A stretch of 64,000 nucleotides of DNA from Candidatus Saccharimonadia bacterium (GCA_963717365.1 OY970327.1:991752-1055751), one strand, 5' to 3'; shown: positions 21,446 to 36,050, numbered from the stretch's first letter. Numbers and translations: made by a program. Notes: generated by a model from the sequence alone, not told the origin.

Positions 21446-22360
21446 ATGATTAAGGCCGAACACCTCAAGAAACAATATAAGAAAAAAGTAGCTGTCGACA
21501 ATATTTCATTTGAAGTTGCCACCGGTAAAGTAACTGGCTTTCTGGGACCTAACGGCGCCGGTAAATCTACTACCATGCGACTGATGCTAGGCTTAGATAA
21601 CGGCAGCGGTAACACAACTTTTGACGGCAAACCGCTGCATGACTATGCCCGGCTGTCTGGGGTAGTCGGCATTCTACTTGAAGCAAAAGCATTTCATCCA
21701 ACTCGTTCGGCCCGCAATCACTTGCGTATTTTAGCGGCGGCTGGCGGCGTACCAAATTCTCGGGTAGACGAAGTACTTAGCATCGTTGGCCTGTCAGAGG
21801 TTGCCAAGAAAAAACCTGGGAAATTCTCATTGGGGATGAGCCAGCGACTAGGGATAGCAGCTGCCATACTGGGACAGCCAAAATATTTGATCCTAGATGA
21901 ACCAGCCAATGGGCTTGATCCTGAAGGTATAGCCTGGCTCAGGCAATTCCTTGAGCATTATGCCGACCAAGGCAATACGGTATTCGTATCAAGTCACTTA
22001 CTGAGTGAAATGGCATTGATGGCTGATAACGTGGTGGTAATAGGCAAGGGCAAACTCATAGCTGATACCTCTATAAGCGCTCTGGTATCGGGCAGTGCGC
22101 ATTCTGGTGTTTTTGTGCGCAGCGGCAAATTATCCCAATTGGAACGACTTATTAAGCAGCATGACCTGGTGTATCAAAAAGTAAACGACGGCCTAAAAAT
22201 AAGTGGTGCTAGTACCGACAAAGTTGGTAAATGGGCCTTCGAAAGTGGTATTCCAATTCTTGAACTAACTAATCAAAGTGCCTCACTGGAAGATGTTTTC
22301 TTAGAAATCACCGAAGGTGAAGAAGAATACCGTGCTCAAACTACAAAAGGAAAGAAATAA
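21446..22360 (+). CDS. ABC transporter ATP-binding protein
   Basis: GPNGAGKST, FSLGMSQRL and LILDEPANGLD. TATACT at 21433-21438 lies 7 nt before the ATG. Confidence 0.9.
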   Translation: MIKAEHLKKQYKKKVAVDNISFEVATGKVTGFLGPNGAGKSTTMRLMLGLDNGSGNTTFDGKPLHDYARLSGVVGILLEAKAFHPTRSARNHLRILAAAGGVPNSRVDEVLSIVGLSEVAKKKPGKFSLGMSQRLGIAAAILGQPKYLILDEPANGLDPEGIAWLRQFLEHYADQGNTVFVSSHLLSEMALMADNVVVIGKGKLIADTSISALVSGSAHSGVFVRSGKLSQLERLIKQHDLVYQKVNDGLKISGASTDKVGKWAFESGIPILELTNQSASLEDVFLEITEGEEEYRAQTTKGKK

Positions 22361-22362
22361 TC

Positions 22363-23115
22363 ATGGGCGCCACTATTAAAGCTGAATTCCTCAAACTTTT
22401 CACCATCCGTTCAACCTATATCATGATTATTTTATCGATTATTTTAATCACCGTATTCGCGTTTTACTTTGAAGGCTACAAAGGCAATACCGGCTCGCCT
22501 GCTTCGACACTAGCCCCAGAGGCGTTGCAAGAAATAGTTTCAAATTCTGCCGGACTAACGGTAACATTCGCCAGTATTATATCCATATTATTCATGGCTC
22601 ACGAGTATCGTTATAACACCATTATGTATACCTTAACTTCCAATGTCAGACGGGGTAGGGTGTTGTTTGCTAAAGTTGCTACCATCATTCTTTTTAGCAT
22701 CGGCTACGGACTGCTGGCTGTAGGACTAGCAATCGGCTGTTATATGGCCGGCTTATCATTACGTGATGCCACCTTGCCACCTCAGAGTTTTGAAGTGTTG
22801 GAGCATGTTGGAAAAGTAGTCTTTTACTTCATGGGTTACGCCTTGATTGGCTTGCTGCTAGCAATGCTGACCCGAAGCGTGGTAATGGCAATTGGAACGC
22901 TGTTAATCTTTCCAATTACCTTCGAGCCACTACTCAGCATAATCCTTAAAGAAGATGCTAAATACTTGCCGTTTACTGCGCTGGATAGCACCGTAGGGGC
23001 GTCAATGATGCCCAATGTACTACCGCCAGGCGATGCCATAACGGTTACTTGCGCCTACCTGGCGGCAATCATGTTAGTTACTTGGCTGCTTTTTGTCCGC
23101 CGCGACGCAAACTAA
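22363..23115 (+). CDS. ABC-2 family permease
   Basis: 250 aa with 6 hydrophobic segments. Starts 3 nt after the ATPase stop. Confidence 0.7.
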   Translation: MGATIKAEFLKLFTIRSTYIMIILSIILITVFAFYFEGYKGNTGSPASTLAPEALQEIVSNSAGLTVTFASIISILFMAHEYRYNTIMYTLTSNVRRGRVLFAKVATIILFSIGYGLLAVGLAIGCYMAGLSLRDATLPPQSFEVLEHVGKVVFYFMGYALIGLLLAMLTRSVVMAIGTLLIFPITFEPLLSIILKEDAKYLPFTALDSTVGASMMPNVLPPGDAITVTCAYLAAIMLVTWLLFVRRDAN

Positions 23116-23162
23116 AATTTATTACGCATTAAATACATAACTCATATGCTTAAATAATAGGC

Positions 23163-23669
23163 ATGGCAAATTATCGTGGGCATATCGTAGGAGGACTAGC
23201 TGCCGGTGCTGTCTATGCCACGCTGCTGGCTAAAGTGCCGATTGAGCGTTTCGCGGAAAGCGCCGGCTTGCTGGAAGACTGGCAGCCATTGGCCGCATTG
23301 TTTGTACTTAGCATGTTGTTCGCGCTGTTTCCCGATGTTGATACCAACAGCAAAGGTCAGGATATATTCATCGGTTTGGCTTTCACGGTTGATGTGCTGC
23401 TAATTGTCGGCGGCAGTTATCAGGCCGCTGCCTATTTGGGGCTTATCGCTATGCTGCCAATTATCACCCATCACCGCGGCTGGACCCACAGTAAATTCGC
23501 CATGATTCTAGTGCCACTACCACTGTTACTGATACCTTATACTCATAATGACAAAGTACTGCCAATATCGATTGTCTTGTACGGCGCGGCGGTCGCCGGC
23601 TACTTTAGCCATTTACTGTTGGATGGGCTGATCTGGAAGCGGATCCGTGTGAAGGGCGGCCGCAGATAG
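23163..23669 (+). CDS. Membrane-bound metal-dependent hydrolase (YdjM/DUF457-like)
   Basis: MANYRGH..., LFPDVDT and HHRGWTHS motifs in a polytopic membrane protein. Confidence 0.65.
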   Translation: MANYRGHIVGGLAAGAVYATLLAKVPIERFAESAGLLEDWQPLAALFVLSMLFALFPDVDTNSKGQDIFIGLAFTVDVLLIVGGSYQAAAYLGLIAMLPIITHHRGWTHSKFAMILVPLPLLLIPYTHNDKVLPISIVLYGAAVAGYFSHLLLDGLIWKRIRVKGGRR

Positions 23670-23683
23670 GCCTACTGCCAACT

Positions 23684-24649
23684 TTAGCGGTGAAGTATTT
23701 CGTTAACCGTCGCTGCAACACGGTACGGGTTGAACTGCTCGTCGTTGTGAGTGGCATGAGGTTTGGCGGAACTAGGATCGAAACGCTGCCCATTCTTCTG
23801 CTTAATAGGGATCTCCCAAGATGCACCCGCTTGAGTTACCTTATTTACGGTTGATTCGAGAACTTTGTCGCTATAAAGCTTATCCTCGGCGTAACTTACA
23901 ATAGCTAAGCTAGCAATTTTACTTTTTAGCAAGCGCTTATAATCAACTTGGTTTTTAGCCAGGTGGCGAACTTCACGCAGTGTTCGTGGGATATTGGCAG
24001 TAAAGTTCTTGACGCCTGCCTTTAACATTTCAGGTGAATCAGGGAAATCTTTCGGATTGTCTTTTCCTTCGGATTTAGCGACAGCCAAGAAGCGTTTGCC
24101 AATAGTACGAATTTTTTCTTTACTAAATCCGGCTGGAGCTAGCATTATAACGTTGGCATCGTCAAAATAGGTCTTACCTTGATCGGCGGCAATCTCCTGC
24201 ATTTTATCAAAAATAAGGCTGCCATAACTGTGGGTAACGATGTCTACGTTTTCTATGCCCTCGGCTTCTATAACAGCGAGGTAATTCATAGCCTGCGAAT
24301 ATGTCGCATCCTTTTTATTCGTGCTATCTTTGAGAATTTTTTTACGATTCTGGTCAGGCATAATTACATCGTTGCCCAACCCAGCGAGTTCTGCCGCAAA
24401 TGGTGCTTTTGAAACAATTCCTTCGGTAAAACCAGGGATATACAAAACTGGCTTTTCGCCGGCGCCTTCATTCAGGCGTACGTAAGGCAGTTGCTCTCCT
24501 GATGAATCGGGGATTTCAGCGTATCGCCAGTTGTGGGCTATTTCATCAGCGATTATATCGCCATGACGATCACGAAGCTGAGTTTCATATTCAGCACTAA
24601 TAAAAGTGGGTTCTTGTTGGTGAGTTAATTGTTCTTTTGTTTTTGACAT
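23684..24649 (-). CDS. Alpha/beta-hydrolase-like protein (module copy 1)
   Basis: PVLYIPGFTEG... and nucleophile elbow VTHSYGS. The track start 24688 overlaps a consensus promoter, so ATG 24649 (MSKTKEQL) is preferred. Confidence 0.6.
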   Translation of the reverse strand: MSKTKEQLTHQQEPTFISAEYETQLRDRHGDIIADEIAHNWRYAEIPDSSGEQLPYVRLNEGAGEKPVLYIPGFTEGIVSKAPFAAELAGLGNDVIMPDQNRKKILKDSTNKKDATYSQAMNYLAVIEAEGIENVDIVTHSYGSLIFDKMQEIAADQGKTYFDDANVIMLAPAGFSKEKIRTIGKRFLAVAKSEGKDNPKDFPDSPEMLKAGVKNFTANIPRTLREVRHLAKNQVDYKRLLKSKIASLAIVSYAEDKLYSDKVLESTVNKVTQAGASWEIPIKQKNGQRFDPSSAKPHATHNDEQFNPYRVAATVNEILHR

Positions 24650-24659
24650 TTCAGTACAC

Positions 24660-24688
24660 ATATTATCATGTATATGATAAAAAGTCAA
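24660..24688 (-). promoter_or_regulatory. Sigma70-like promoter for the hydrolase gene
   Basis: On the minus strand: TTGACT (24688-24683), a 17-nt spacer, then TAATAT (24665-24660). The ATG lies 10 nt downstream. Confidence 0.5.
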
Positions 24689-24812
24689 GTATATTGATTT
24701 AAATCTATAAACTATTACACGGTCAAGGTAGTGCCCATACTTGTGTATTGTTGATAAATAATGTATTATGTCATCAAATTATTTATATGCAACTCACGTT
24801 GTAGGAGTATAC

Positions 24813-25577
24813 GTGTTACAACCGGTTATTCGGATTGAAAATGAGCGACTTGAAACGCCTTTGGTTGAGTTCCATAACCCTTTAACAGGGAGCAATATTG
24901 GAGTGGTGGGCATGATTCACGTGGCAAAACGACCCTACTATAAGTTTATTAGTGACTATACTGCTATTCAGCAAGAGCGGGGGGCTACCGTACATTTCGA
25001 AAGAGTCCGTTTATCTAACGCTGAGGAGCTAGGGTTAGTAGAGCCTGAAATCTCCCAAAGTGTTAGACGGTTTCGCGCCGCCATTACCCGAGTACCTGAA
25101 GTTATGGCAGTATCGTTAAATTTAACGAGTCAACGTGAAGGCATAGATTATCAACCAGAATGGCAAAATCATGACAGTAGTGACTTGGAACTAGTCAGTA
25201 TGCTAGGCCATTCAGCAGTTAACCGCGTCGCTGCAATTAACCGTGTTGTAAGTATGCTAGATTGTGTCGTCCCGCTGCAATACAAGCGCCGGGCGCTTAA
25301 CCTTGGGTTTCAACTATTGTCACAGATTGATCTAGAACAGGCAAAAAAGACCAAAGCTAAACAACATTTTGACTCTGTAGTGATTGATCATAGAAATAAT
25401 ATTGCGCTTGCCGCGGTGGAGAAACTGTTAACAGACCAGCCTGATAGTAATATTGTTATGCTGTGGGGCTCGGCGCATCTCCCCGGTATTGGGGCGGGTT
25501 TACAGAAACTGGGTTACGCGGCTACCCGCAGATTTTGGCTGCCGGCATTTTCTACTGCTAATGTAATTAAAAGCTAA
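24813..25577 (+). CDS. TIKI/TraB/GumN-superfamily-like protein (module copy 1)
   Basis: Two GxxH motifs (VVGMIHV, WGSAHLPGIG) plus DHRNN. Clear paralog of 27228..27986. GTG 24813 has AGGAG 6 nt upstream and matches the paralog's N-terminus; the track start is ATG 24768. Confidence 0.5.
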   Translation: MLQPVIRIENERLETPLVEFHNPLTGSNIGVVGMIHVAKRPYYKFISDYTAIQQERGATVHFERVRLSNAEELGLVEPEISQSVRRFRAAITRVPEVMAVSLNLTSQREGIDYQPEWQNHDSSDLELVSMLGHSAVNRVAAINRVVSMLDCVVPLQYKRRALNLGFQLLSQIDLEQAKKTKAKQHFDSVVIDHRNNIALAAVEKLLTDQPDSNIVMLWGSAHLPGIGAGLQKLGYAATRRFWLPAFSTANVIKS

Positions 25578-25817
25578 CAGTTAAGAAATAATATTCAAAC
25601 TATCTATTGCTTTATTAGCAAATTAATTATAATATATGACTAATCGTTGAGATAAGATGATTCTTAACTCCGAGGTACTTTGACAAGCAAACACAAGGTG
25701 AGGGTTAAGGGCATACGTAATTATGCTTTTGTTCTTCATCTTGTGTGACTCCAATGAGAAACATAGCCAAGCCATGCTTGGGCGACATTAGTCTAGTCGC
25801 GTGGAGGGAAAGCAGTC

Positions 25818-26132
25818 ATGTTCTCACGTATTCGTTCGAAGGTCGCCGATGAGTCGGGTTTTCTGCTGGTCGGTGGCTTCCTGGGCCTGGTGCTCTACGT
25901 CGTGGTCTTCCTGGTGTTCATCAACAACTGGGCGGCAAGTCCTGTGCCGGGCGGCAACGACAACTTCATCTACGGGCTACTCCAGGGCATCTTCGCCGCA
26001 CCTGCCTTCATCGTCAGTCTCTTTGACCCCAAGATCGCGATCTACCAAGTCGGCAACATCGGCGGCTGGTACGACTTCGGCTTCCTCGTCGGCATCGGCG
26101 CGATCTTCGGCGGCGCAAGCAACGCAAGCTGA
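25818..26132 (+). CDS. Small polytopic membrane protein encoded by anomalously GC-rich DNA
   Basis: 104 aa with 3 hydrophobic segments. GGAGGG (25803-25808) lies 9 nt upstream. About four of five codons end in G/C by hand count. Overlapping alternative frames are judged artefacts of the GC content. Confidence 0.65.
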   Translation: MFSRIRSKVADESGFLLVGGFLGLVLYVVVFLVFINNWAASPVPGGNDNFIYGLLQGIFAAPAFIVSLFDPKIAIYQVGNIGGWYDFGFLVGIGAIFGGASNAS

Positions 26133-26367
26133 GCGGCGCAAGCCACGGCCTGAATTAGCAGAGTGAAAAGTGATAAGTGGATTGCCAGCCAAATAGATGG
26201 TAACTACGTGTTACTGCTCTACCCCCTATTTCTCTTGTAGCCTGCTTGTCATTTTTCACTTCATAAATGCGTGTTTATGCTGATGAGTCCAAAAGGACGA
26301 AAGTGGAACAGTCAGTTTCTCCTTTTTATGCATAAAATATGCTGTGCCAAGAAACTGCAATTTAGAA

Positions 26368-27105
26368 CTACACATTGTCGTACAACCAGGCTTTGCCGAC
26401 GGTTGCGTAGTGGCCGAGTCTAGTATATCTAATGGTAGGATTGATATCGGCTGCGCGGGTGACGTCTACGAGTTCTCTTTGGTATCGTGACGGGATTAGC
26501 TCATCTGTCAATGACGCAATCATAGTAACTTCTTTTCCAACGAGCGCATCTAGATGATTTATTGGAGCCATATCATACCAAGCAGCTTCGACATCGGCTA
26601 AATCATAACCTTTTTGCTCGATACCGGTTCTAATATGTTGGGTTCTTGACCCATGCCACATGCTTTTAGCAAGACTACTGCCTGAAACAAATATGGTAGC
26701 ACTATCAAAGTCTGTAAATCTGCCGCTTACAGCCGCGAAGGCGGCGTTCCCCAGACTAGTTGCGATAAGGTTTATTCTTAAGTAGTCATTAGACTTCCTA
26801 ATGGTCTCAAGGTCATCTGCGATAGTTTCTTTGGCGTAGGCATAAGACTCTGCCACCAGATCGACATCAGGTTTGAGTATTTCATCATGGAAATAGTAGG
26901 CGAGTACAGCATTTCCTTTATTGGTCAGTCTCTTTATTAATTTTTCATATGGAACGCCACCCCCATGCCACGGTGGGAACAATACGGATAAATTTTGTCC
27001 CTCGGAATTTACCAACTTACGATCGGTGATGGCTTGGTCTGGAGTATATTCCTGAGAGAAAATATCTCCCTGTAGTCTATTTCTGACCATAAATTTGTCG
27101 AGCAT
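26368..27105 (-). CDS. Alpha/beta-hydrolase-like protein (module copy 2)
   Basis: 245 aa. LFPPWHGGG, nucleophile-elbow-like IATSLGN, and a late LGHY. Confidence 0.5.
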   Translation of the reverse strand: MLDKFMVRNRLQGDIFSQEYTPDQAITDRKLVNSEGQNLSVLFPPWHGGGVPYEKLIKRLTNKGNAVLAYYFHDEILKPDVDLVAESYAYAKETIADDLETIRKSNDYLRINLIATSLGNAAFAAVSGRFTDFDSATIFVSGSSLAKSMWHGSRTQHIRTGIEQKGYDLADVEAAWYDMAPINHLDALVGKEVTMIASLTDELIPSRYQRELVDVTRAADINPTIRYTRLGHYATVGKAWLYDNV

Positions 27106-27227
27106 AAGTAAAGGAAATTATATCATATTATCTTATATAATGCTAGTAACGTCAATTGCGGTACTTACTCTGGTCGTATCATTTTGTATATTTTGTAACA
27201 GCGTCAAATATCTGCTATATTAACAAA

Positions 27228-27986
27228 ATGAGAAATACAATTAATCGTGTGGTTGACGGGGTATTTCAGACGCCGTTATGTGAATTTGATCATCCGGCAA
27301 CAGGCAGTAGTATTGGTTTTGCGGGGATGGTTCACATCGGTGATCCACAATATTTTGATGTAGTTGAGGATTATGTAACACGAAGAGAAGTAGCCGGATC
27401 TTTAGTGCATTATGAAAGAATGATGCCGCCTACGGCTGAAGAGTTAGTAGAATCAGGTTTAGATCCAGCACTGGTCGAACGTTTTGGGACGGGGGTTGAG
27501 GGGACTTTTAACTTCTTGGGAAAAAGACTTGGATTACGTTTTCAGCTTGACAGTATGCAATACGGTGAAGCTTGGGAAAATCATGATATTCCAAGATTAG
27601 AGTTGATGCGACTCCTCGGCGCTAAAGGTGTAGAACGGTTTACCGAAAAAGGCGAAAAACTCGTAGACCTAGAAGATAAGATCGGCTCTGATCTGACTCT
27701 AAAGATTATGTCAGGTACTTTACGCCATATATCTCTTGTAAGTATGTTGAGCAAACTATCTCCTAAAAATCGGCGTGAAGATCGGATAGTAACCGACCGA
27801 CGTAACGAGGTCGCCCTTTTGGCTATTGATGAAGCCCTGCGACGAGAGCCAGAACGTGACATCACATTACTATGGGGCGCAATGCATCTTCCGGGCATTG
27901 GCAAAGGCCTACGTCAACGGGGTTACAAACTGAATAGTACTCAGTGGCTAAATGCCTTTACCCTGCCTGCTAAGGTTCGTAAGTAA
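27228..27986 (+). CDS. TIKI/TraB/GumN-superfamily-like protein (module copy 2)
   Basis: FAGMVHIG, TDRRNE and LWGAMHLPGIG. The track start 27156 is TTG; ATG 27228 aligns with the paralog. Confidence 0.5.
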   Translation: MRNTINRVVDGVFQTPLCEFDHPATGSSIGFAGMVHIGDPQYFDVVEDYVTRREVAGSLVHYERMMPPTAEELVESGLDPALVERFGTGVEGTFNFLGKRLGLRFQLDSMQYGEAWENHDIPRLELMRLLGAKGVERFTEKGEKLVDLEDKIGSDLTLKIMSGTLRHISLVSMLSKLSPKNRREDRIVTDRRNEVALLAIDEALRREPERDITLLWGAMHLPGIGKGLRQRGYKLNSTQWLNAFTLPAKVRK

Positions 27987-28991: not shown

Positions 28992-29567
28992 ATGCTAGGA
29001 ACCTTAGTAACTTGGTTTAAAGCTCTTTCAATTGCAGGTAAAACAGGCGTAGTTGCTGCTACTACAGTAGTCGGGGGAACTGGGCTTGCCGCTGTAAGTC
29101 CTGAACCCCCAGCCCAAAGTACTCAGAGTGCCCAATGTAGTTCTGCTACAAGTCAAACAGAGGAGATTAAAGTAGTTGATTATCCAATTAACGAATTCGA
29201 GGATTCGAAGTTAGACAAAGGTAAATCTGAAATTCGTACAGCTGGAGTAAGTGGCGAGAACAAACTTACATATACTGTAACTGAGTACACCCCTACAAAC
29301 TGCCAGCCGAACACTAAGTTATTAGACAAAGAGGAAGTTATTAAAAAGACTACAACTCAAGTAACCGCCATCGGTACATATGTCGCTCCGCCACCCCCAC
29401 CTGCTCCAAAACCTATTACTAATTGTGCTCCTGGATATAGTCCATGCGTACCTAATGTATCTTATGATTTAAATTGTCCAGATATTGGATTCTCGGTAAC
29501 AGTTACAGGCTCTGACCCCCACGGTTTCGATAGGGACGGCGATGGATACGGGTGTGAATCTTACTAA
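28992..29567 (+). CDS. Secreted G5-domain protein with C-terminal Excalibur-like Ca-binding motif
   Basis: N-terminal anchor; G5-like segment KGKSEIRTAGVSGENKLTYTVTEY...TQVTAIGT; PPPPPAP linker; C-terminal DPHGFDRDGDGYGCE. Confidence 0.65.
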   Translation: MLGTLVTWFKALSIAGKTGVVAATTVVGGTGLAAVSPEPPAQSTQSAQCSSATSQTEEIKVVDYPINEFEDSKLDKGKSEIRTAGVSGENKLTYTVTEYTPTNCQPNTKLLDKEEVIKKTTTQVTAIGTYVAPPPPPAPKPITNCAPGYSPCVPNVSYDLNCPDIGFSVTVTGSDPHGFDRDGDGYGCESY

Positions 29568-29722: not shown

Positions 29723-30724
29723 TTAGTCCATAACATCTGCGAACGATAAACCATGCTTATCCTTAAGCTGCTGGTAGTTTACTGCCGCAAAACCAATTGA
29801 ATAAGTTGTAGTAAGAGGTACAATCACAGCCGCAGGTCGTTCTAATGGGTCTTGCGAGGGTAAGGTCATAGGCAAAGTACCTATCGGATAAGTACGGTAC
29901 CCGTGCACCATCCCTATTACAAGTCCACTTTCGATGTCAAAAATTGGCCCACCGCTATTACCAGGGTTAAATGCCATAGTAAATTCATACTGAAAAACAT
30001 CTGTATGATGCCGTGTATTAACAACTCCATAATCGCCACGTAAATAAATTTGTGAGACTGTGGGGGTGCCATCGGGCATTATCACTAACCCTTGAAGGGG
30101 ATATCCGAGTACTCCTGCTTTTGAACCTATGTCTAGGGGTATCGCCTTAAATGATAGATGTTGTGCGGGATTCATAATCCAATCGCCGTTATGCTTGTAA
30201 AAACCATCTGGTAGATAGAAAATTGCACCGTCAATATTAGGAAATGTAAATAAATTTTCATTTATTTTAGGTTCTAAGTAAGCAGTATGGCAGTAACCAT
30301 TCTCATCTCGATTTACAAATAAATATACGTCTCCATCTTGATGATGAGCTCCTGGATTATCCGGAGTTTGAGTGTTAAATATGCAATGCGAGCAAGTCAT
30401 CATACGGTTTTTACCTATTAGATAACCGGTTCCCAGTGGATATTGTTCTATATTATTTGCACCGGCCTGTCTAATGCGAGTTATATGGTATACGCAAGAT
30501 TTCGCATAGGATACCACTTCTTTAAATGATAAAAATGAATCAGGTTTAGGCACCACAGGAGGAAGTGGGCTCTTCTTTAGCTCCTTAGTTACAGACGGCG
30601 TTGCACGGTTTGTGACACTTTTTTTAGATAATTTCTTAGACTTTTGAGCTTTCCGTATTCCTGCTTTTTGTTTCCGCGCTTTTCTGTCTTTCTTCTGTAC
30701 CATATGTTTATAATTATAGTCCAT
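29723..30724 (-). CDS. Trypsin-like (S1) serine protease with ~60-aa Lys/Arg-rich N-terminal tail
   Basis: TCSHCIF (His), GNSGGPIF (Ser). N-terminus KKDRKARKQKAGIRKAQKSKKLSKK. No signal peptide or TM helix seen. Confidence 0.75.
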   Translation of the reverse strand: MDYNYKHMVQKKDRKARKQKAGIRKAQKSKKLSKKSVTNRATPSVTKELKKSPLPPVVPKPDSFLSFKEVVSYAKSCVYHITRIRQAGANNIEQYPLGTGYLIGKNRMMTCSHCIFNTQTPDNPGAHHQDGDVYLFVNRDENGYCHTAYLEPKINENLFTFPNIDGAIFYLPDGFYKHNGDWIMNPAQHLSFKAIPLDIGSKAGVLGYPLQGLVIMPDGTPTVSQIYLRGDYGVVNTRHHTDVFQYEFTMAFNPGNSGGPIFDIESGLVIGMVHGYRTYPIGTLPMTLPSQDPLERPAAVIVPLTTTYSIGFAAVNYQQLKDKHGLSFADVMD

Positions 30725-30798
30725 CCACTAAATTCGATATGTTGTAAAAGATAAATTATAAAAATATAGTTGAGCGGTATAAATTTTTGGATTAATAA

Positions 30799-32037
30799 TT
30801 ATAACTCCCTAATACTCCCAAAAGCCACGCGTTTCAGGATAATATCCTGCATATTTGCCATAGAAGCCGGTACCAGGGTAAATTCGCCGTATCTATCATT
30901 TATGTTATCGGCGGCGTAAGCCAGGGAGCGCGTATCAAGCCTAGTATCGTCGAATAGGCCTAATTGCCGCGGAGTAGCCGGCTGTAGGTAGTATACCGTG
31001 ACTCCTATATTGGTAACTCTAGCTGGTGGCGTAACCTGGTTCATAAGCTTTTGGGCGTGGATGTATATGTCTTGCGTGGAATAAATTGGGGACTTAGTTT
31101 TTTTGCCCTGCGACCAATACTGCCGATTTTCAAAACTTAACCATAAATGAATGCCCCACGCCGTGGAATCATGCTTCCTAAGCCTGCGTCCTGTTTTTTC
31201 GCATAACTTCATAAGTAGCCTGGAAAGCTTCTCTGGGTCGCTGGTTTTATCCCCTAATGCGTACTGTTGCCCGAAACTCTTTCGTCCAAAGTCTACGGCG
31301 TCTATTTCGTGGCCCCGCAGGCGCAAATACCAATAGTAGCCAACAATACTTTTAAAAACCTGTTTTCGGAGTACGTCCACATTAGCATCTAAAAACTGGA
31401 GGGGCGTATATATCCCCGCCATGTTTAGCCTAGCTTTATATCTGACATTTATACCTGGCAAATCAAGCAAGGTAAGGCTCTCATAAGTTTCCCGGATTGT
31501 TTTGCCGGTAATTATGTCCAAGCCATCCGGCTTATTAAGGCCAGCGGCTACTTTTGCTAGGAACCGGTTAGGGGCGATACCTATATTAACCGTAACGTAA
31601 TCACCTAACGCATTTTTTACATCTTGTTTTATCTCTTTTGCCACTTCCAATAGACTTTTACCCCGCTTAATTGCTAGAGAGTGGCTGAAGTCGATAACGA
31701 ATTCGTCTACTGATTTAGGTGTTACGGTATCCGTGTAGTTAAGAAGGAGTTTTTTAAATCGCCTGTGGGCATCAAAGTACTTTTCTGGGTCGGGAACCAT
31801 AATAATAGCTTCCCTGGAGAGCAGCCGGGCCTCTCTGACGTTTACACCTAATTTAATGCCCAATGCCTTGGCTTCATAAGAAGACGCGATTACCATGCCT
31901 CTAGGACTGTCATACGCGGCAATCGCTACCGGTTTATTGCGTATAAGCGGATTCGCCTGCTGTTCGATAATGGCAAAACAGCTGTTGAGGTCAATATGCA
32001 GTATCAAGGGGTCATTATAGTTAAGTGGCAAGTCCAT
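30799..32037 (-). CDS. Y-family DNA polymerase (DinB/UmuC-like)
   Basis: ILHIDLNSCFAIIEQQANPLIRNKPVAIAA...MVIASSYEAKALGIKLG, and later the little-finger region. Confidence 0.85.
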   Translation of the reverse strand: MDLPLNYNDPLILHIDLNSCFAIIEQQANPLIRNKPVAIAAYDSPRGMVIASSYEAKALGIKLGVNVREARLLSREAIIMVPDPEKYFDAHRRFKKLLLNYTDTVTPKSVDEFVIDFSHSLAIKRGKSLLEVAKEIKQDVKNALGDYVTVNIGIAPNRFLAKVAAGLNKPDGLDIITGKTIRETYESLTLLDLPGINVRYKARLNMAGIYTPLQFLDANVDVLRKQVFKSIVGYYWYLRLRGHEIDAVDFGRKSFGQQYALGDKTSDPEKLSRLLMKLCEKTGRRLRKHDSTAWGIHLWLSFENRQYWSQGKKTKSPIYSTQDIYIHAQKLMNQVTPPARVTNIGVTVYYLQPATPRQLGLFDDTRLDTRSLAYAADNINDRYGEFTLVPASMANMQDIILKRVAFGSIREL

Positions 32038-32287
32038 CGCTTACTGCCTCCAATGTCCAATGTAGATTACTGGTATTGAGGTTTAAACGAAACCATATAG
32101 TATTCTCCTTATCTACTAATTCATAAATATGGTGCAATACCCGCCCCTCATTAACTGTGTGATGATAGCCAATTTTACCTACGGTATAATCTTTATTTTG
32201 CCAGTATATTAGATGAGGTAGTGCTTTCCGTTTTTTCACTGAGTAGTACATTACTACTGATACTTCTTCGTTAATTTTCTCTCTCAT
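32021..32287 (-). CDS. Small protein translationally coupled to the Y-family polymerase (candidate accessory subunit)
   Basis: 88 aa from ATG 32287 (MREKINEE; AAGGGG 8 nt upstream), or 102 aa from 32329. Its 3' end overlaps the polymerase start by 17 nt. Confidence 0.45.
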   Translation of the reverse strand: MREKINEEVSVVMYYSVKKRKALPHLIYWQNKDYTVGKIGYHHTVNEGRVLHHIYELVDKENTIWFRLNLNTSNLHWTLEAVSDGLAT

Positions 32288-32312
32288 AGGAAGACCCCTT
32301 ATAATTATTAAT

Positions 32313-33005
32313 ATGTGCGGCAGATACACCCTCCATAAAAAGGCTGATAATATAGCAAAACGTTATAAGGTTGCTTCAATCCCTAAGGATATACATGAGA
32401 ATTACAACGTAGCGCCCGGACAGCGAATGCCGGTGATTACCGAAGACGAAGACGGGAAGCGAAAAATTGAAGTTATGAAATGGGGCTTAATCCCTGTATG
32501 GGCAAAGGACCCGAAAATAGGCTACAAACTCATTAACGCCCGGGATGACACCATCTTCGAAAAACCAATGTGGCGCAGTGTAATACTTAAAAAGCGGTGC
32601 CTTATTCCCGCTGATGGCTTTTTCGAATGGAAGAAGCTACCAGGAGGTACAAAAGTGCGAAAACAGCCGTTTTATATTCGCCCCAAACAACAAGACTTAT
32701 TTAGCTTTGCAGGCGTCTGGGAAACCTGGAAAGATGCTGAGGGCTTAGAATGGAAGACATATTCAATTATTACCACTGACCCCAATAAAGAAATGAAGCA
32801 GGTGCATAACCGCATGCCCGTAATTTTGCACCAAGATGATGAGTCCTCTTGGCTTTCGCCTTCTCATAATAATGACCGAGGTGCCATAGAGGCCCTACTG
32901 CGTCCCTGGGAAGACAATGGACTTGAACTTTTCGAGGTAAGCAGTGACGTGAACGCTTCCCGGAATAATGAGGCAAAGCTCATCTATCCGATTAACTCTC
33001 AGTGA
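32313..33005 (+). CDS. SOS-response-associated peptidase (SRAP/YedK-like abasic-site sensor)
   Basis: Begins MCGRYTL (Cys2), then NVAPGQ, MKWGLIP, INARDDT and NRMPVIL. TATAAT at 32300-32305 lies 7 nt before the ATG. Confidence 0.9.
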   Translation: MCGRYTLHKKADNIAKRYKVASIPKDIHENYNVAPGQRMPVITEDEDGKRKIEVMKWGLIPVWAKDPKIGYKLINARDDTIFEKPMWRSVILKKRCLIPADGFFEWKKLPGGTKVRKQPFYIRPKQQDLFSFAGVWETWKDAEGLEWKTYSIITTDPNKEMKQVHNRMPVILHQDDESSWLSPSHNNDRGAIEALLRPWEDNGLELFEVSSDVNASRNNEAKLIYPINSQ

Positions 33006-34271: not shown

Positions 34272-34472
34272 GTGTATACGAAATCACCCATTTCAGTTAA
34301 AGAGGCAAGACGGATTCTTGGAATCACTGGTAAGGGGTTATCAGACGATGCAATTAGGCAACTCATAGCACATATTGATGTATTAACAGATGTAGTAATT
34401 ACTCAATATAATGATTCCAAAAACCAGAGTTCTATTGATATTTTAAATGACGAAGCTCATACTAAAGAATAA
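34272..34472 (+). CDS. Small HTH-like protein (possible excisionase/RDF or regulator)
   Basis: 66 aa with a GTG start. SVKEARRILGITGKGLSDDAIRQLI resembles a helix-turn-helix. The stop lies 1 nt before the recombinase ATG. Confidence 0.4.
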   Translation: MYTKSPISVKEARRILGITGKGLSDDAIRQLIAHIDVLTDVVITQYNDSKNQSSIDILNDEAHTKE

Positions 34473-34473
34473 T

Positions 34474-36018
34474 ATGTTTAAAGCTGTAATATATACCCGC
34501 GTATCTACTGACGAACAAGCTAGGAATGGTCTAAGTCTAAAGGGTCAAGAGGACGCCACACGGGATTATTGTCTACGTGAAGGTATAGAGGTTGCTATGG
34601 TATTTTGTGATGCTGGAGAATCTGCAAAGACTGCTAATAGGCCACAATTAATAGCCTCAATGGCGTACTGTACCGAACATTACAAGGAAATTGACTTCTA
34701 TTTGGTGTGGAAGATGGATAGACTCGCTCGTATGGCCTACGACACAGCAGTAATTGATGCTAATTTACAAAAGCTTGGGATTCAGCTTCGTTCAGCTACG
34801 GAGCCAATTACAGATTCTCCTATCGGTTCTCTAACTAAAACCATGTTGGCAGGTTTCGCCCAGTTTGATAATGATGTACGCGCAGAACGTAGTAGTAGTG
34901 GGGTAAAACGGAGAATTGAAGAGGGTGGATGGCCTCATATGGCTCCGTTAGGCTACAGTAATTATACGGATAGTCTTAAGCGGCCAACACTTGTGCAGTC
35001 TAGCCAGGCACCACTTATTACAAGGTGGCTAAAGGAATACTTAAAAGGCGGCTATACGCAAAAGGCTTCAAATCAACTAGCTTGGGATATGGGGATACGC
35101 TCCAAACAGGGCACTCGATTGTCTAATCAGCAAACAATTAATATGCTTCGTAACCCAGTTTATGCAGGTCTGGTAAAATCTAAAATGATTGAATTTCCGG
35201 TTACAGGCCTACACACAGGGTTAATTAGTTACAAAGAACATGAAGCAATAATTAACAAATTGAATAAAAGAAAAAAACAGTTAACTGGGGTCAGTTCTTC
35301 GCAAGATTGGCCATTACGAGGAGGGTTTATAAAATGTGCGGAATGTAAAGAAAATATTACGGGAAGTTCGCCAAAGGGCCGAACAAAACACTACTCTATG
35401 TACCATTGCCCTAAATGCCGCACTAAAACGGTAGGCCATCGCGTGAGCGTATCAAAAGCAACCTTACATAACGAATTTGAAGCTTTATTAGCCTCTGTTA
35501 CGCCATCTGAGGCTGCATTAAAGCTATTTAAATCGCAAGTAATAAAGAAATGGCAGCTTTTAAATAGCGAGAAAAGATTACAGCAGCAGCAAATGCAACT
35601 TACGCTCGAAAAATTAAACCTTAGGAAACAAAAAGTAATTACACTTTTTGTTGATGGTAGCTTATCTTCGGAAGAAAAGGTGGAGCAATCAAATATTATC
35701 CAGTCAGAAATACTTAGAACCGAATTAAAATTAAATGAGGCAAAAGAAGCTGTAATAAGTTCAGATATTCTAATTGACTTCGGTATTAACATGATTCAAA
35801 ACGCTTCAAAACTATGGCGTATATCTAATGCATTAGAACGACAACGCCTACAATTAGCTATTTTTCCCGATGGACTTACATATAACTTTGTATCTGGGTT
35901 TGGAACCATTAAAACTAGTGAAATATATCAGTTAATTAGTCAATCGATATCAATAGATAATCAAAATTCAAGTATGGTGGGGGTGGCTGGAGTTGAACCA
36001 GCTACCAAGTGGTTATGA
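34474..36018 (+). CDS. Large serine recombinase (integrase type)
   Basis: AVIYTRVSTDEQARNGLSLKGQ (catalytic Ser), recombinase domain, Zn ribbon CAECKEN...YHCPKC and a coiled-coil tail. The last 44 nt overlap the tRNA-Met gene. Confidence 0.9.
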   Translation: MFKAVIYTRVSTDEQARNGLSLKGQEDATRDYCLREGIEVAMVFCDAGESAKTANRPQLIASMAYCTEHYKEIDFYLVWKMDRLARMAYDTAVIDANLQKLGIQLRSATEPITDSPIGSLTKTMLAGFAQFDNDVRAERSSSGVKRRIEEGGWPHMAPLGYSNYTDSLKRPTLVQSSQAPLITRWLKEYLKGGYTQKASNQLAWDMGIRSKQGTRLSNQQTINMLRNPVYAGLVKSKMIEFPVTGLHTGLISYKEHEAIINKLNKRKKQLTGVSSSQDWPLRGGFIKCAECKENITGSSPKGRTKHYSMYHCPKCRTKTVGHRVSVSKATLHNEFEALLASVTPSEAALKLFKSQVIKKWQLLNSEKRLQQQQMQLTLEKLNLRKQKVITLFVDGSLSSEEKVEQSNIIQSEILRTELKLNEAKEAVISSDILIDFGINMIQNASKLWRISNALERQRLQLAIFPDGLTYNFVSGFGTIKTSEIYQLISQSISIDNQNSSMVGVAGVEPATKWL

Positions 36019-36050
36019 GCCACCTGCTCTGACCGATGAGCTACACCCCC
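35975..36050 (-). tRNA. tRNA-Met (anticodon CAT; elongator Met versus Ile2 not distinguishable here), CCA encoded
   Basis: Hand-folded cloverleaf: acceptor GGGGGTG/CACCCCC, D arm GCTC-ATCGGTCA-GAGC, anticodon arm GGTGG-CTCATAA-CCACT, variable loop TGGTA, T arm GCTGG-TTCAACT-CCAGC, then A-CCA. Confidence 0.9.

Follow-up and report, generated by a model that had tools for sequence, protein, structure and literature searches.

Two TraB/TIKI-like paralogs beside unrelated alpha/beta hydrolases in a Candidatus Saccharimonadia bacterium

Pfam family PF01963 (TraB_PrgY_gumN) has PrgY of Enterococcus faecalis pCF10 and TraB of pAD1 among its examples, and the alpha/beta-hydrolase fold ranks among the broadest in enzymes. 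This study concerns four genes from these two groups, which lie in two back-to-back pairs between positions 23,684 and 27,986 of a DNA stretch from a Candidatus Saccharimonadia bacterium (GCA_963717365.1 OY970327.1:991752-1055751). The whole 64,000-nt stretch is called the window here, and positions are counted from its first letter. A first-pass annotation had described the four genes as a divergent two-gene module present twice, and had suggested, from the conserved synteny, a joint function for the two enzymes. The minus-strand genes are referred to below as H1 and H2, and their plus-strand partners as T1 and T2.

T1 and T2 resemble the TraB/PrgY/GumN proteins in forming one domain of ~240 amino acids (aa), in which a GxxH follows the first strand and a Glu the second, and an R(N) helix precedes another GxxH with LxG behind it. 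They differ from PrgY and TraB in having no C-terminal membrane domain, signal peptide, or plasmid or pheromone context, and from the TraB/PrgY/GumN proteins in having an extra invariant W-x-N-H-D motif. With the TIKI1/2 Wnt proteases, the erythromycin esterases EreA/EreB/Bcr135/136, and RRSP they share the conserved His/Glu/His and Arg residues, which in T1 and T2 may likewise lie on a parallel beta-sheet core (PMC6254334); these residues are essential in RRSP and have been proposed for the Ere enzymes (PMC6254334). Unlike the TIKI enzymes of known chemistry, T1 and T2 are minimal, single-domain proteins, and unlike RRSP they are missing the first Glu of the 2His/2Glu motif. H1 and H2 are like generic Ser-Asp-His alpha/beta hydrolases in their canonical fold, nucleophile elbow, and order of the triad. 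The named proteins with which they can be compared are, for H1, the gamma-lactamase 1hkh, the non-haem haloperoxidase/esterase group, and RsbQ/KAI2, and for H2, the RcgR-type hydrolase model NF047337, PDB entry 4z8z, and cinnamoyl esterases; neither has a close characterized relative, the identity to PDB matches being 10–17%.

The results given below make it likely that the four genes are independent single-gene units that happen to be neighbors, and not a duplicated operon-like module. Two observations carry this reading: the hydrolases are unrelated to each other and the pairing was not seen in any of the other genomes examined; therefore, the genes are better regarded as coincidental neighbors than as a duplicated two-enzyme unit. 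The apparent duplicated enzyme pair would thus be removed as a false lead, since it consists of two paralogs beside unrelated members of a very common fold.

Paralogous T genes and unrelated H genes

The four open reading frames (ORFs) and the two spacers between the divergent genes are as follows.

H1, 23684..24649, minus strand: alpha/beta hydrolase of 321 aa; Ser141 (in THSYGS), Asp256, and His301 are the predicted catalytic residues
Intergenic region 1, 24650..24812: 163 bp, AT-rich, 27–35% GC; contains the synteny breakpoint at ~24694
T1, 24813..25577, plus strand: TraB/PrgY/GumN (TIKI-superfamily)-like putative hydrolase of 254 aa, soluble
H2, 26368..27105, minus strand: alpha/beta hydrolase of 245 aa; Ser117 (in ATSLGN), Asp201, and His232 are the predicted catalytic residues
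Intergenic region 2, 27106..27227: 122 bp, AT-rich; promoter-like sites on both strands
T2, 27228..27986, plus strand: T1 paralog of 252 aa, soluble, with motifs as in T1 (public record P0035)

All four ORFs were found at the coordinates and on the strands originally assigned to them, and all are also public gene calls (P0184, P0001, P0002, P0035); the public call for H1 begins four codons earlier, at 24661. These gene calls are on a contig of 1,191,543 bp, and the homologs of the encoded proteins belong to Candidatus Saccharibacteria/Saccharimonadales genomes, in agreement with a Saccharibacteria-type genome for the window. Hydropathy analysis revealed no hydrophobic N-terminus in H1, T1, H2, or T2, and for H1 neither a signal peptide nor a transmembrane segment. 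PADLOC gave no defense-system match for any of the four, and a defense-system reading of these genes was dropped.

The plus-strand genes had been called clear paralogs, and this was confirmed: T1 and T2 are 32% identical over 248 aa (BLASTP, E = 7e-46), and every peptide match listed in the first-pass annotation is present in the alignment. The minus-strand genes gave a different result. They had been described as much more diverged partners, but no homology between them could be detected by any of three comparisons. BLASTP of H1 against H2 gave an E-value of 1.7. Hidden Markov models (HMMs) of the H1 family (40+ homologs) and of the H2 family (~30 homologs) each found only their own protein in the window. 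Alignment of the two family profiles with hhalign gave an E-value of 0.35 and a probability of 0.17%. The proteins also differ in architecture, H1 (321 aa) having an N-terminal extension and a lid and H2 having only 245 aa. Because H1 and H2 belong to unrelated families, we conclude that there was no duplication of the two-gene module as a whole; only its T half is present twice.

Each H protein is nevertheless an alpha/beta hydrolase with a Ser-Asp-His triad, the roles of the individual residues being assigned from their positions. For H1 the fold was established by structure prediction, since a profile search against PDB sequences gave nothing meaningful: the AlphaFold2 model had a mean predicted local distance difference test score (pLDDT) of 91, and a Foldseek search with it returned 1465 PDB matches at E ≤ 1e-3, all of them alpha/beta hydrolases, the top ones with probability 1.00 and template modeling (TM) scores of 0.5–0.7. 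All 42 sequences compared for the H1 family have H140-S141-x-G143, D256, and H301, and all 29 compared for the H2 family have S117-x-G119, D201, and H232. Thus, the nucleophile-elbow motifs that had been noticed in the two proteins, THSYGS in H1 and ATSLGN in H2, both have their serine in an invariant column. For H2 the fold assignment comes from profiles. Its PDB profile search gave 4z8z (E = 4e-4) and a cinnamoyl esterase (E = 6e-3), and some of its homologs carry PF12146 (Hydrolase_4). Both H1 and H2 would then be serine hydrolases, each from its own Saccharibacteria-wide family; within each family, identity across Saccharibacteria is 40–60%.

One more specific candidate for H2, membership in the RcgR family of putative quorum lactone hydrolases, was considered and rejected. 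The match to the NCBIfam RcgR model NF047337 (E = 6e-12) scored 45.3 bits against a cut-off of 182, and was confined to H2 residues 101–234 and profile positions 179–313 of 332; it reflects only partial, sub-threshold alpha/beta-hydrolase similarity. RcgR itself is a plasmid-conjugation repressor in rhizobia (PMC13055273), and a plasmid-conjugation context is absent at H2; the RcgR papers give no enzymology.

Gene neighborhoods in other genomes

Whether the pairing is conserved was examined at loci carrying relatives of the T, H1, or H2 genes. The T loci comprised seven from genomes (L006–L012) and 12 from metagenomes (L018–L029); several of these were short or near-duplicates, leaving ~15 distinct loci. 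There were also four H1 loci (L014–L017), and five distinct H2 loci (L001, L002/3, L004/5, L030–32, and L033) that came from other Saccharibacteria. HMM scans detected no H1- or H2-family gene at any of the ~15 distinct T loci. By Pfam, the neighbors of the T genes there included neither an alpha/beta hydrolase nor any recurring partner; they were a GDSL lipase, an MFS transporter, MarR, methyltransferases, GNAT, RNase H, AbiEii, an acyltransferase, DUF1801, MPG glycosylase, a PLP decarboxylase, and SUKH. In the opposite direction, no T gene was present at the four H1 loci, and none was found within 5–6 kb at the five distinct H2 loci by tblastn or with the T-family HMM. At one H2 locus, represented by three related metagenome contigs, a 252-aa gene (L030:2413-3171, minus strand) lies divergently upstream of the H2 homolog and mimics the layout in the window, where T2 is also 252 aa; its product was not T-like by HMM.

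The most informative locus was L014, the closest relative, with 86% aa identity in H1 and 93% in YdjM. By blastn, L014 and the window share 79% nt identity over 21913–24694; the match runs through H1 and ends ~45 bp upstream of it. H1 is the last gene of a conserved block consisting of an ABC ATPase, an ABC-2 permease, YdjM, and H1; L014 has H1 without T1. In the slot occupied by T1, L014 has a gene on the same strand as H1 (L014:1525-2319, plus strand) for a 264-aa protein with a cytidine-deaminase-like HAE...PCxxC motif. Neither this gene nor the adjacent NhaA antiporter gene has a counterpart anywhere in the 64-kb window.

These results do not support the proposed conserved synteny, nor the argument drawn from it that the enzymes work as a pair: the H genes are unrelated, and the adjacency occurred in no other genome that we checked. 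What had been called conserved synteny is therefore only two T-family genes, each beside a member of the very broad alpha/beta-hydrolase fold. H1 belongs to a conserved core block, and a variable segment containing T1, a high-GC ORF, H2, and T2 begins in the spacer between H1 and T1, ~45 bp upstream of H1. The back-to-back arrangement most likely arose twice, by independent juxtaposition in this lineage.

The high-GC segment had been described as an insert bracketed by the two pairs, and a segment of 59% GC (~25800–26200) does lie between T1 and H2. It contains an ORF on the plus strand (25818–26132; 57–60% GC vs. ~43% around it) for a 104-aa protein with strongly hydrophobic segments (maximum hydropathy 2.87), the C-terminal half of which is 45–53% identical to hypothetical proteins on Vibrio and Pseudomonas megaplasmids. 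This membrane-protein ORF looks like a recent foreign insertion. A separate Logan contig carrying T2 has its first nucleotide 93 nt outside the called H2 gene, toward the high-GC ORF (~26275); that assembly is therefore not contiguous across the interval from T1 to H2.

The T clade and its link to the TraB/TIKI superfamily

A word-index homolog search with T1 returned nothing but T1 itself. An exhaustive profile search with T1 and T2 returned 1617 cluster representatives (clusters at 50% identity) at E ≤ 1e-3, of which 525 had E ≤ 1e-10, and nearly all were 230–320 aa long. The T clade is thus a large group of uncharacterized ~250-aa proteins without a name, found mainly in Saccharibacteria and Actinomycetota. 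Conservation was determined from an alignment of 80 T relatives with 22–35% identity to T1. E63, D121, and G219 were invariant; G33, H36, G57, Q107, W117, R194, A198, W218, and H222 were at least 90% conserved; and N195 was at least 90% conserved among the 14 closest relatives. The T1 residues G33-x-x-H36, E63, W117-x-N-H-D121, R194-N195, and W218-G-x-x-H222 accordingly represent a clade pattern, GxxH ... (HY)E ... WxNHD ... RN ... WGxxH.

T1 and T2 did not behave as a recent pair. Each was nearer to P0036–P0039 of other samples (33–39% identity; 36–39% for T2) than to the other (30–32%), and they were not sisters in a distance tree, which was star-like and weakly resolved. The nearest relative, P0036, is on a contig of 1.4 kb. 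Judging from these sequences, T1 and T2 would be two old paralogs of the T clade or separately acquired copies. Two other genomes have same-strand tandem duplicates of T genes (L008:5980-7584 and L023:1956-3638); the members of each tandem pair are sisters in the tree, so that local duplication of the T family recurs, and neither pair has a hydrolase partner.

The first-pass annotation had assigned the pattern GxxH ... E ... RN ... GxxHLxGI to the TIKI/TraB superfamily. Motifs, relatives that pass the Pfam threshold, and the best structural match place the T clade, and with it T1 and T2, in that superfamily as a divergent offshoot of TraB/PrgY/GumN (PF01963). The two GxxH motifs, the conserved Glu, and the conserved Arg (in RN) of the TIKI active site, as defined in PMC6254334, are all present in the T family and are near-invariant in the 80 relatives. 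PF01963 was the only Pfam family matched by T1 (18.4 bits) and T2 (14.2 bits); both scores are below the gathering cut-off of 26.8, and both matches cover only the C-terminal part. Among the 80 relatives, however, 20 matched PF01963 at E ≤ 0.01, and P0121 (33.4 bits) and P0136 (32.9 bits) exceeded the cut-off. The matches fell in the N-terminal lobe of some members and in the C-terminal lobe of others, and that of P0076 (26.7 bits) covered profile positions 4–259 of 263.

The AlphaFold2 model of T1 had a pLDDT of 95.2 and a predicted TM score of 0.91. Its top and only notable PDB match was 8bqs_DQ (383 residues; probability 0.97, E = 3e-3, TM score 0.38, 11% identity). Entry 8bqs, a Tetrahymena supercomplex, includes a 385-aa "TraB family protein", COXTT5, and because the lengths agree (383 vs. 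385 aa) chain DQ is very probably COXTT5. COXTT5 is a eukaryotic, mitochondrial, structural protein, an accessory subunit of Tetrahymena complex IV. In BFVD the T1 model matched proteins of giant viruses, among them one with a TraB-family annotation. The original assignment of T1 and T2 as TraB/TIKI-like is thus supported by motifs, Pfam relatives, and this structural match, and that of H1 and H2 as alpha/beta hydrolases holds. Sequence-level searches of the T family against PDB sequences with phmmer and profiles gave nothing meaningful, and a profile–profile comparison with PrgY of pCF10 (hhalign) gave a weak, local match (E = 6e-3) in the R...GxAHLxG segment. A conjugation or pheromone-plasmid context for the T genes was dropped: tblastn of T2 against 72,556 plasmids gave no match.

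By analogy with the TraB/TIKI superfamily, T1 and T2 would most likely be hydrolases of an ester or peptide bond. In the probable mechanism, H36 and E63 would act as a His-Glu pair, with H222, in activating water for attack on the carbonyl, and R194 and N195 would position the substrate, as in TIKI enzymes of the Ere and RRSP type. Because they have no signal peptides, both proteins would be expected to act in the cytoplasm. About 25% of 150 listed T relatives contain a strongly hydrophobic segment, which in the examples inspected was an N-terminal transmembrane anchor. In P0101 (602 aa; T domain at 344–578) an N-terminal signal-peptide-peptidase-like intramembrane protease domain is fused to the T domain (PF04258, E = 2e-5). 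The anchors and this fusion hint that part of the family acts on peptide-related substrates close to the membrane.

T1 and T2 thus mark a clade, comprising no fewer than 1617 clusters (50% identity), that is mostly missed by the Pfam and NCBIfam thresholds, that is common to Saccharibacteria and Actinomycetota, and that is distinguished by the W-x-N-H-D motif. It is a reasonable target for enzyme characterization and for a new family model.

Spacers, alternative explanations, and the surrounding region

Both spacers have consensus-like promoters for each gene, and each of the four genes would be transcribed from its own promoter in AT-rich spacer DNA. The site for H1, TTGACT-17-TAATAT, lies on the minus strand at 24688..24660, with the synteny breakpoint (~24694) just upstream. 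The number of promoter-like sites was not above that in shuffled sequences (15 vs. 11.2 ± 3.5). The spacers share a 16-nt near-repeat, CATATTATC(A/T)T(G/A)TATA (24659–24674 and 27124–27139; family D4). The predicted −10-like hexamers of H1 and H2 overlap this element, which probably reflects no more than promoter consensus within AT-rich sequence, although it may be an operator shared by both spacers. Beyond this match the two spacers gave no convincing alignment, and beyond 14–16-mers there was no nucleotide-level repeat between the two H–T units.

Several points weigh against independent, coincidental neighbors. In the window, each T gene has an alpha/beta-hydrolase gene lying divergently upstream, and H1 and H2 are the only alpha/beta hydrolases recognized among the matches listed for the 74 window ORFs. 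By a rough estimate, such a coincidence would have a probability of ~1e-4 to 1e-3 if placement were random, for an arrangement that was noticed post hoc. The comparison set is also small: several metagenome contigs are only 1–3 kb long, so that some neighbors are beyond view, and the set contains no close relative carrying T1 or T2 at >40% identity, which leaves room for a lineage-specific functional pairing. Under that alternative, a TraB-like hydrolase would on two separate occasions have been placed next to an alpha/beta hydrolase because both act on the same substrate class, for example de-esterifying a host-derived compound in sequence or trimming its peptides, with co-regulation from the shared divergent spacer. 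In addition to the positions of the genes, it is favored by the lack of any other alpha/beta-hydrolase family with at least two members among those listed matches, by the 16-nt match common to both spacers, and by the fact that both enzyme classes are hydrolases, H2 resembling a putative lactone-hydrolase model. We nevertheless consider it rather unlikely, for the other T loci examined have no alpha/beta-hydrolase neighbor, the other H1 and H2 loci examined have no T gene, and L014 has H1 without T1; the shared 16-mer coincides with −10-like hexamers in AT-rich DNA in which promoter-like sites are no more frequent than in shuffled sequences, and the spacers otherwise do not align. It is unlikely that the two pairings arose convergently as a hydrolytic pathway of two steps, acting for example on esters, lactones, or peptides from the host, in an episymbiont whose actinobacterial hosts also have the T family; if true, it would provide the first functional handle on this family of >1600 clusters.

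Ancient duplication of the whole H–T module, with one hydrolase later diverging beyond recognition or being replaced in place by a non-homologous one, would account for the identical divergent orientation, the similar spacers (163 and 122 bp), and the old paralogy of T1 and T2 at 32% identity, and the hhalign alignment of H1 with H2, colinear though not significant, does bring their nucleophile motifs into register. The H families evolve slowly, however, keeping 40–60% identity across Saccharibacteria, and H paralogs as old as T1 and T2 should therefore still be recognizable, yet comparison of H1 with H2 gave E-values of 0.35–1.7. The differences in length and architecture, the position of H1 in a core block whose synteny ends before T1, the separate places of T1 and T2 in the family tree, and the tandem T duplications without a hydrolase in L008 and L023 all argue in the same direction, and we regard this history as very improbable. 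It is also quite improbable that T1 and T2 are non-catalytic TraB-fold proteins with a binding or regulatory role, like ChaN or the PMT C1 domain, for which the neighboring genes would be irrelevant. Some TIKI-superfamily members are inactive, the PMT C1/C2 domains being without the 2His/2Glu motif (PMC6254334), and in T1 and T2 the first His (G-M-I-H) is not preceded by a Glu at the position that E3900 takes in the E3900-x-H3902 of RRSP. Against this, H36, E63, H222, and R194 are invariant or at least 90% conserved in the 80 relatives, the pattern expected of an active site, and they form the same His/Glu/His/Arg set as in RRSP and the Ere enzymes. Independent single-gene units therefore remain the reading that we prefer.

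The region downstream of these genes has features of its own. In the interval 34447–36050, a large serine recombinase gene (Resolvase/Recombinase, ~514 aa) terminates 44 nt within an oppositely oriented tRNA-Met gene (35975–36050), and this junction at ~36 kb looks like the edge of an integrated element. A link between the H/T region and the junction through att-like repeats was considered and rejected: no att-like direct repeats of the tRNA-Met end were found between 20 and 37 kb. Just downstream of T2, at 29723–33005, is a damage-response-type cluster consisting of a trypsin-like protease (with weak PADLOC RT-Protease_XI matches), a Y-family polymerase (IMS), a small overlapping ORF, and an SRAP peptidase. 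A secreted-looking protein with a weak G5 domain match is encoded at 28992–29567, upstream of this cluster.

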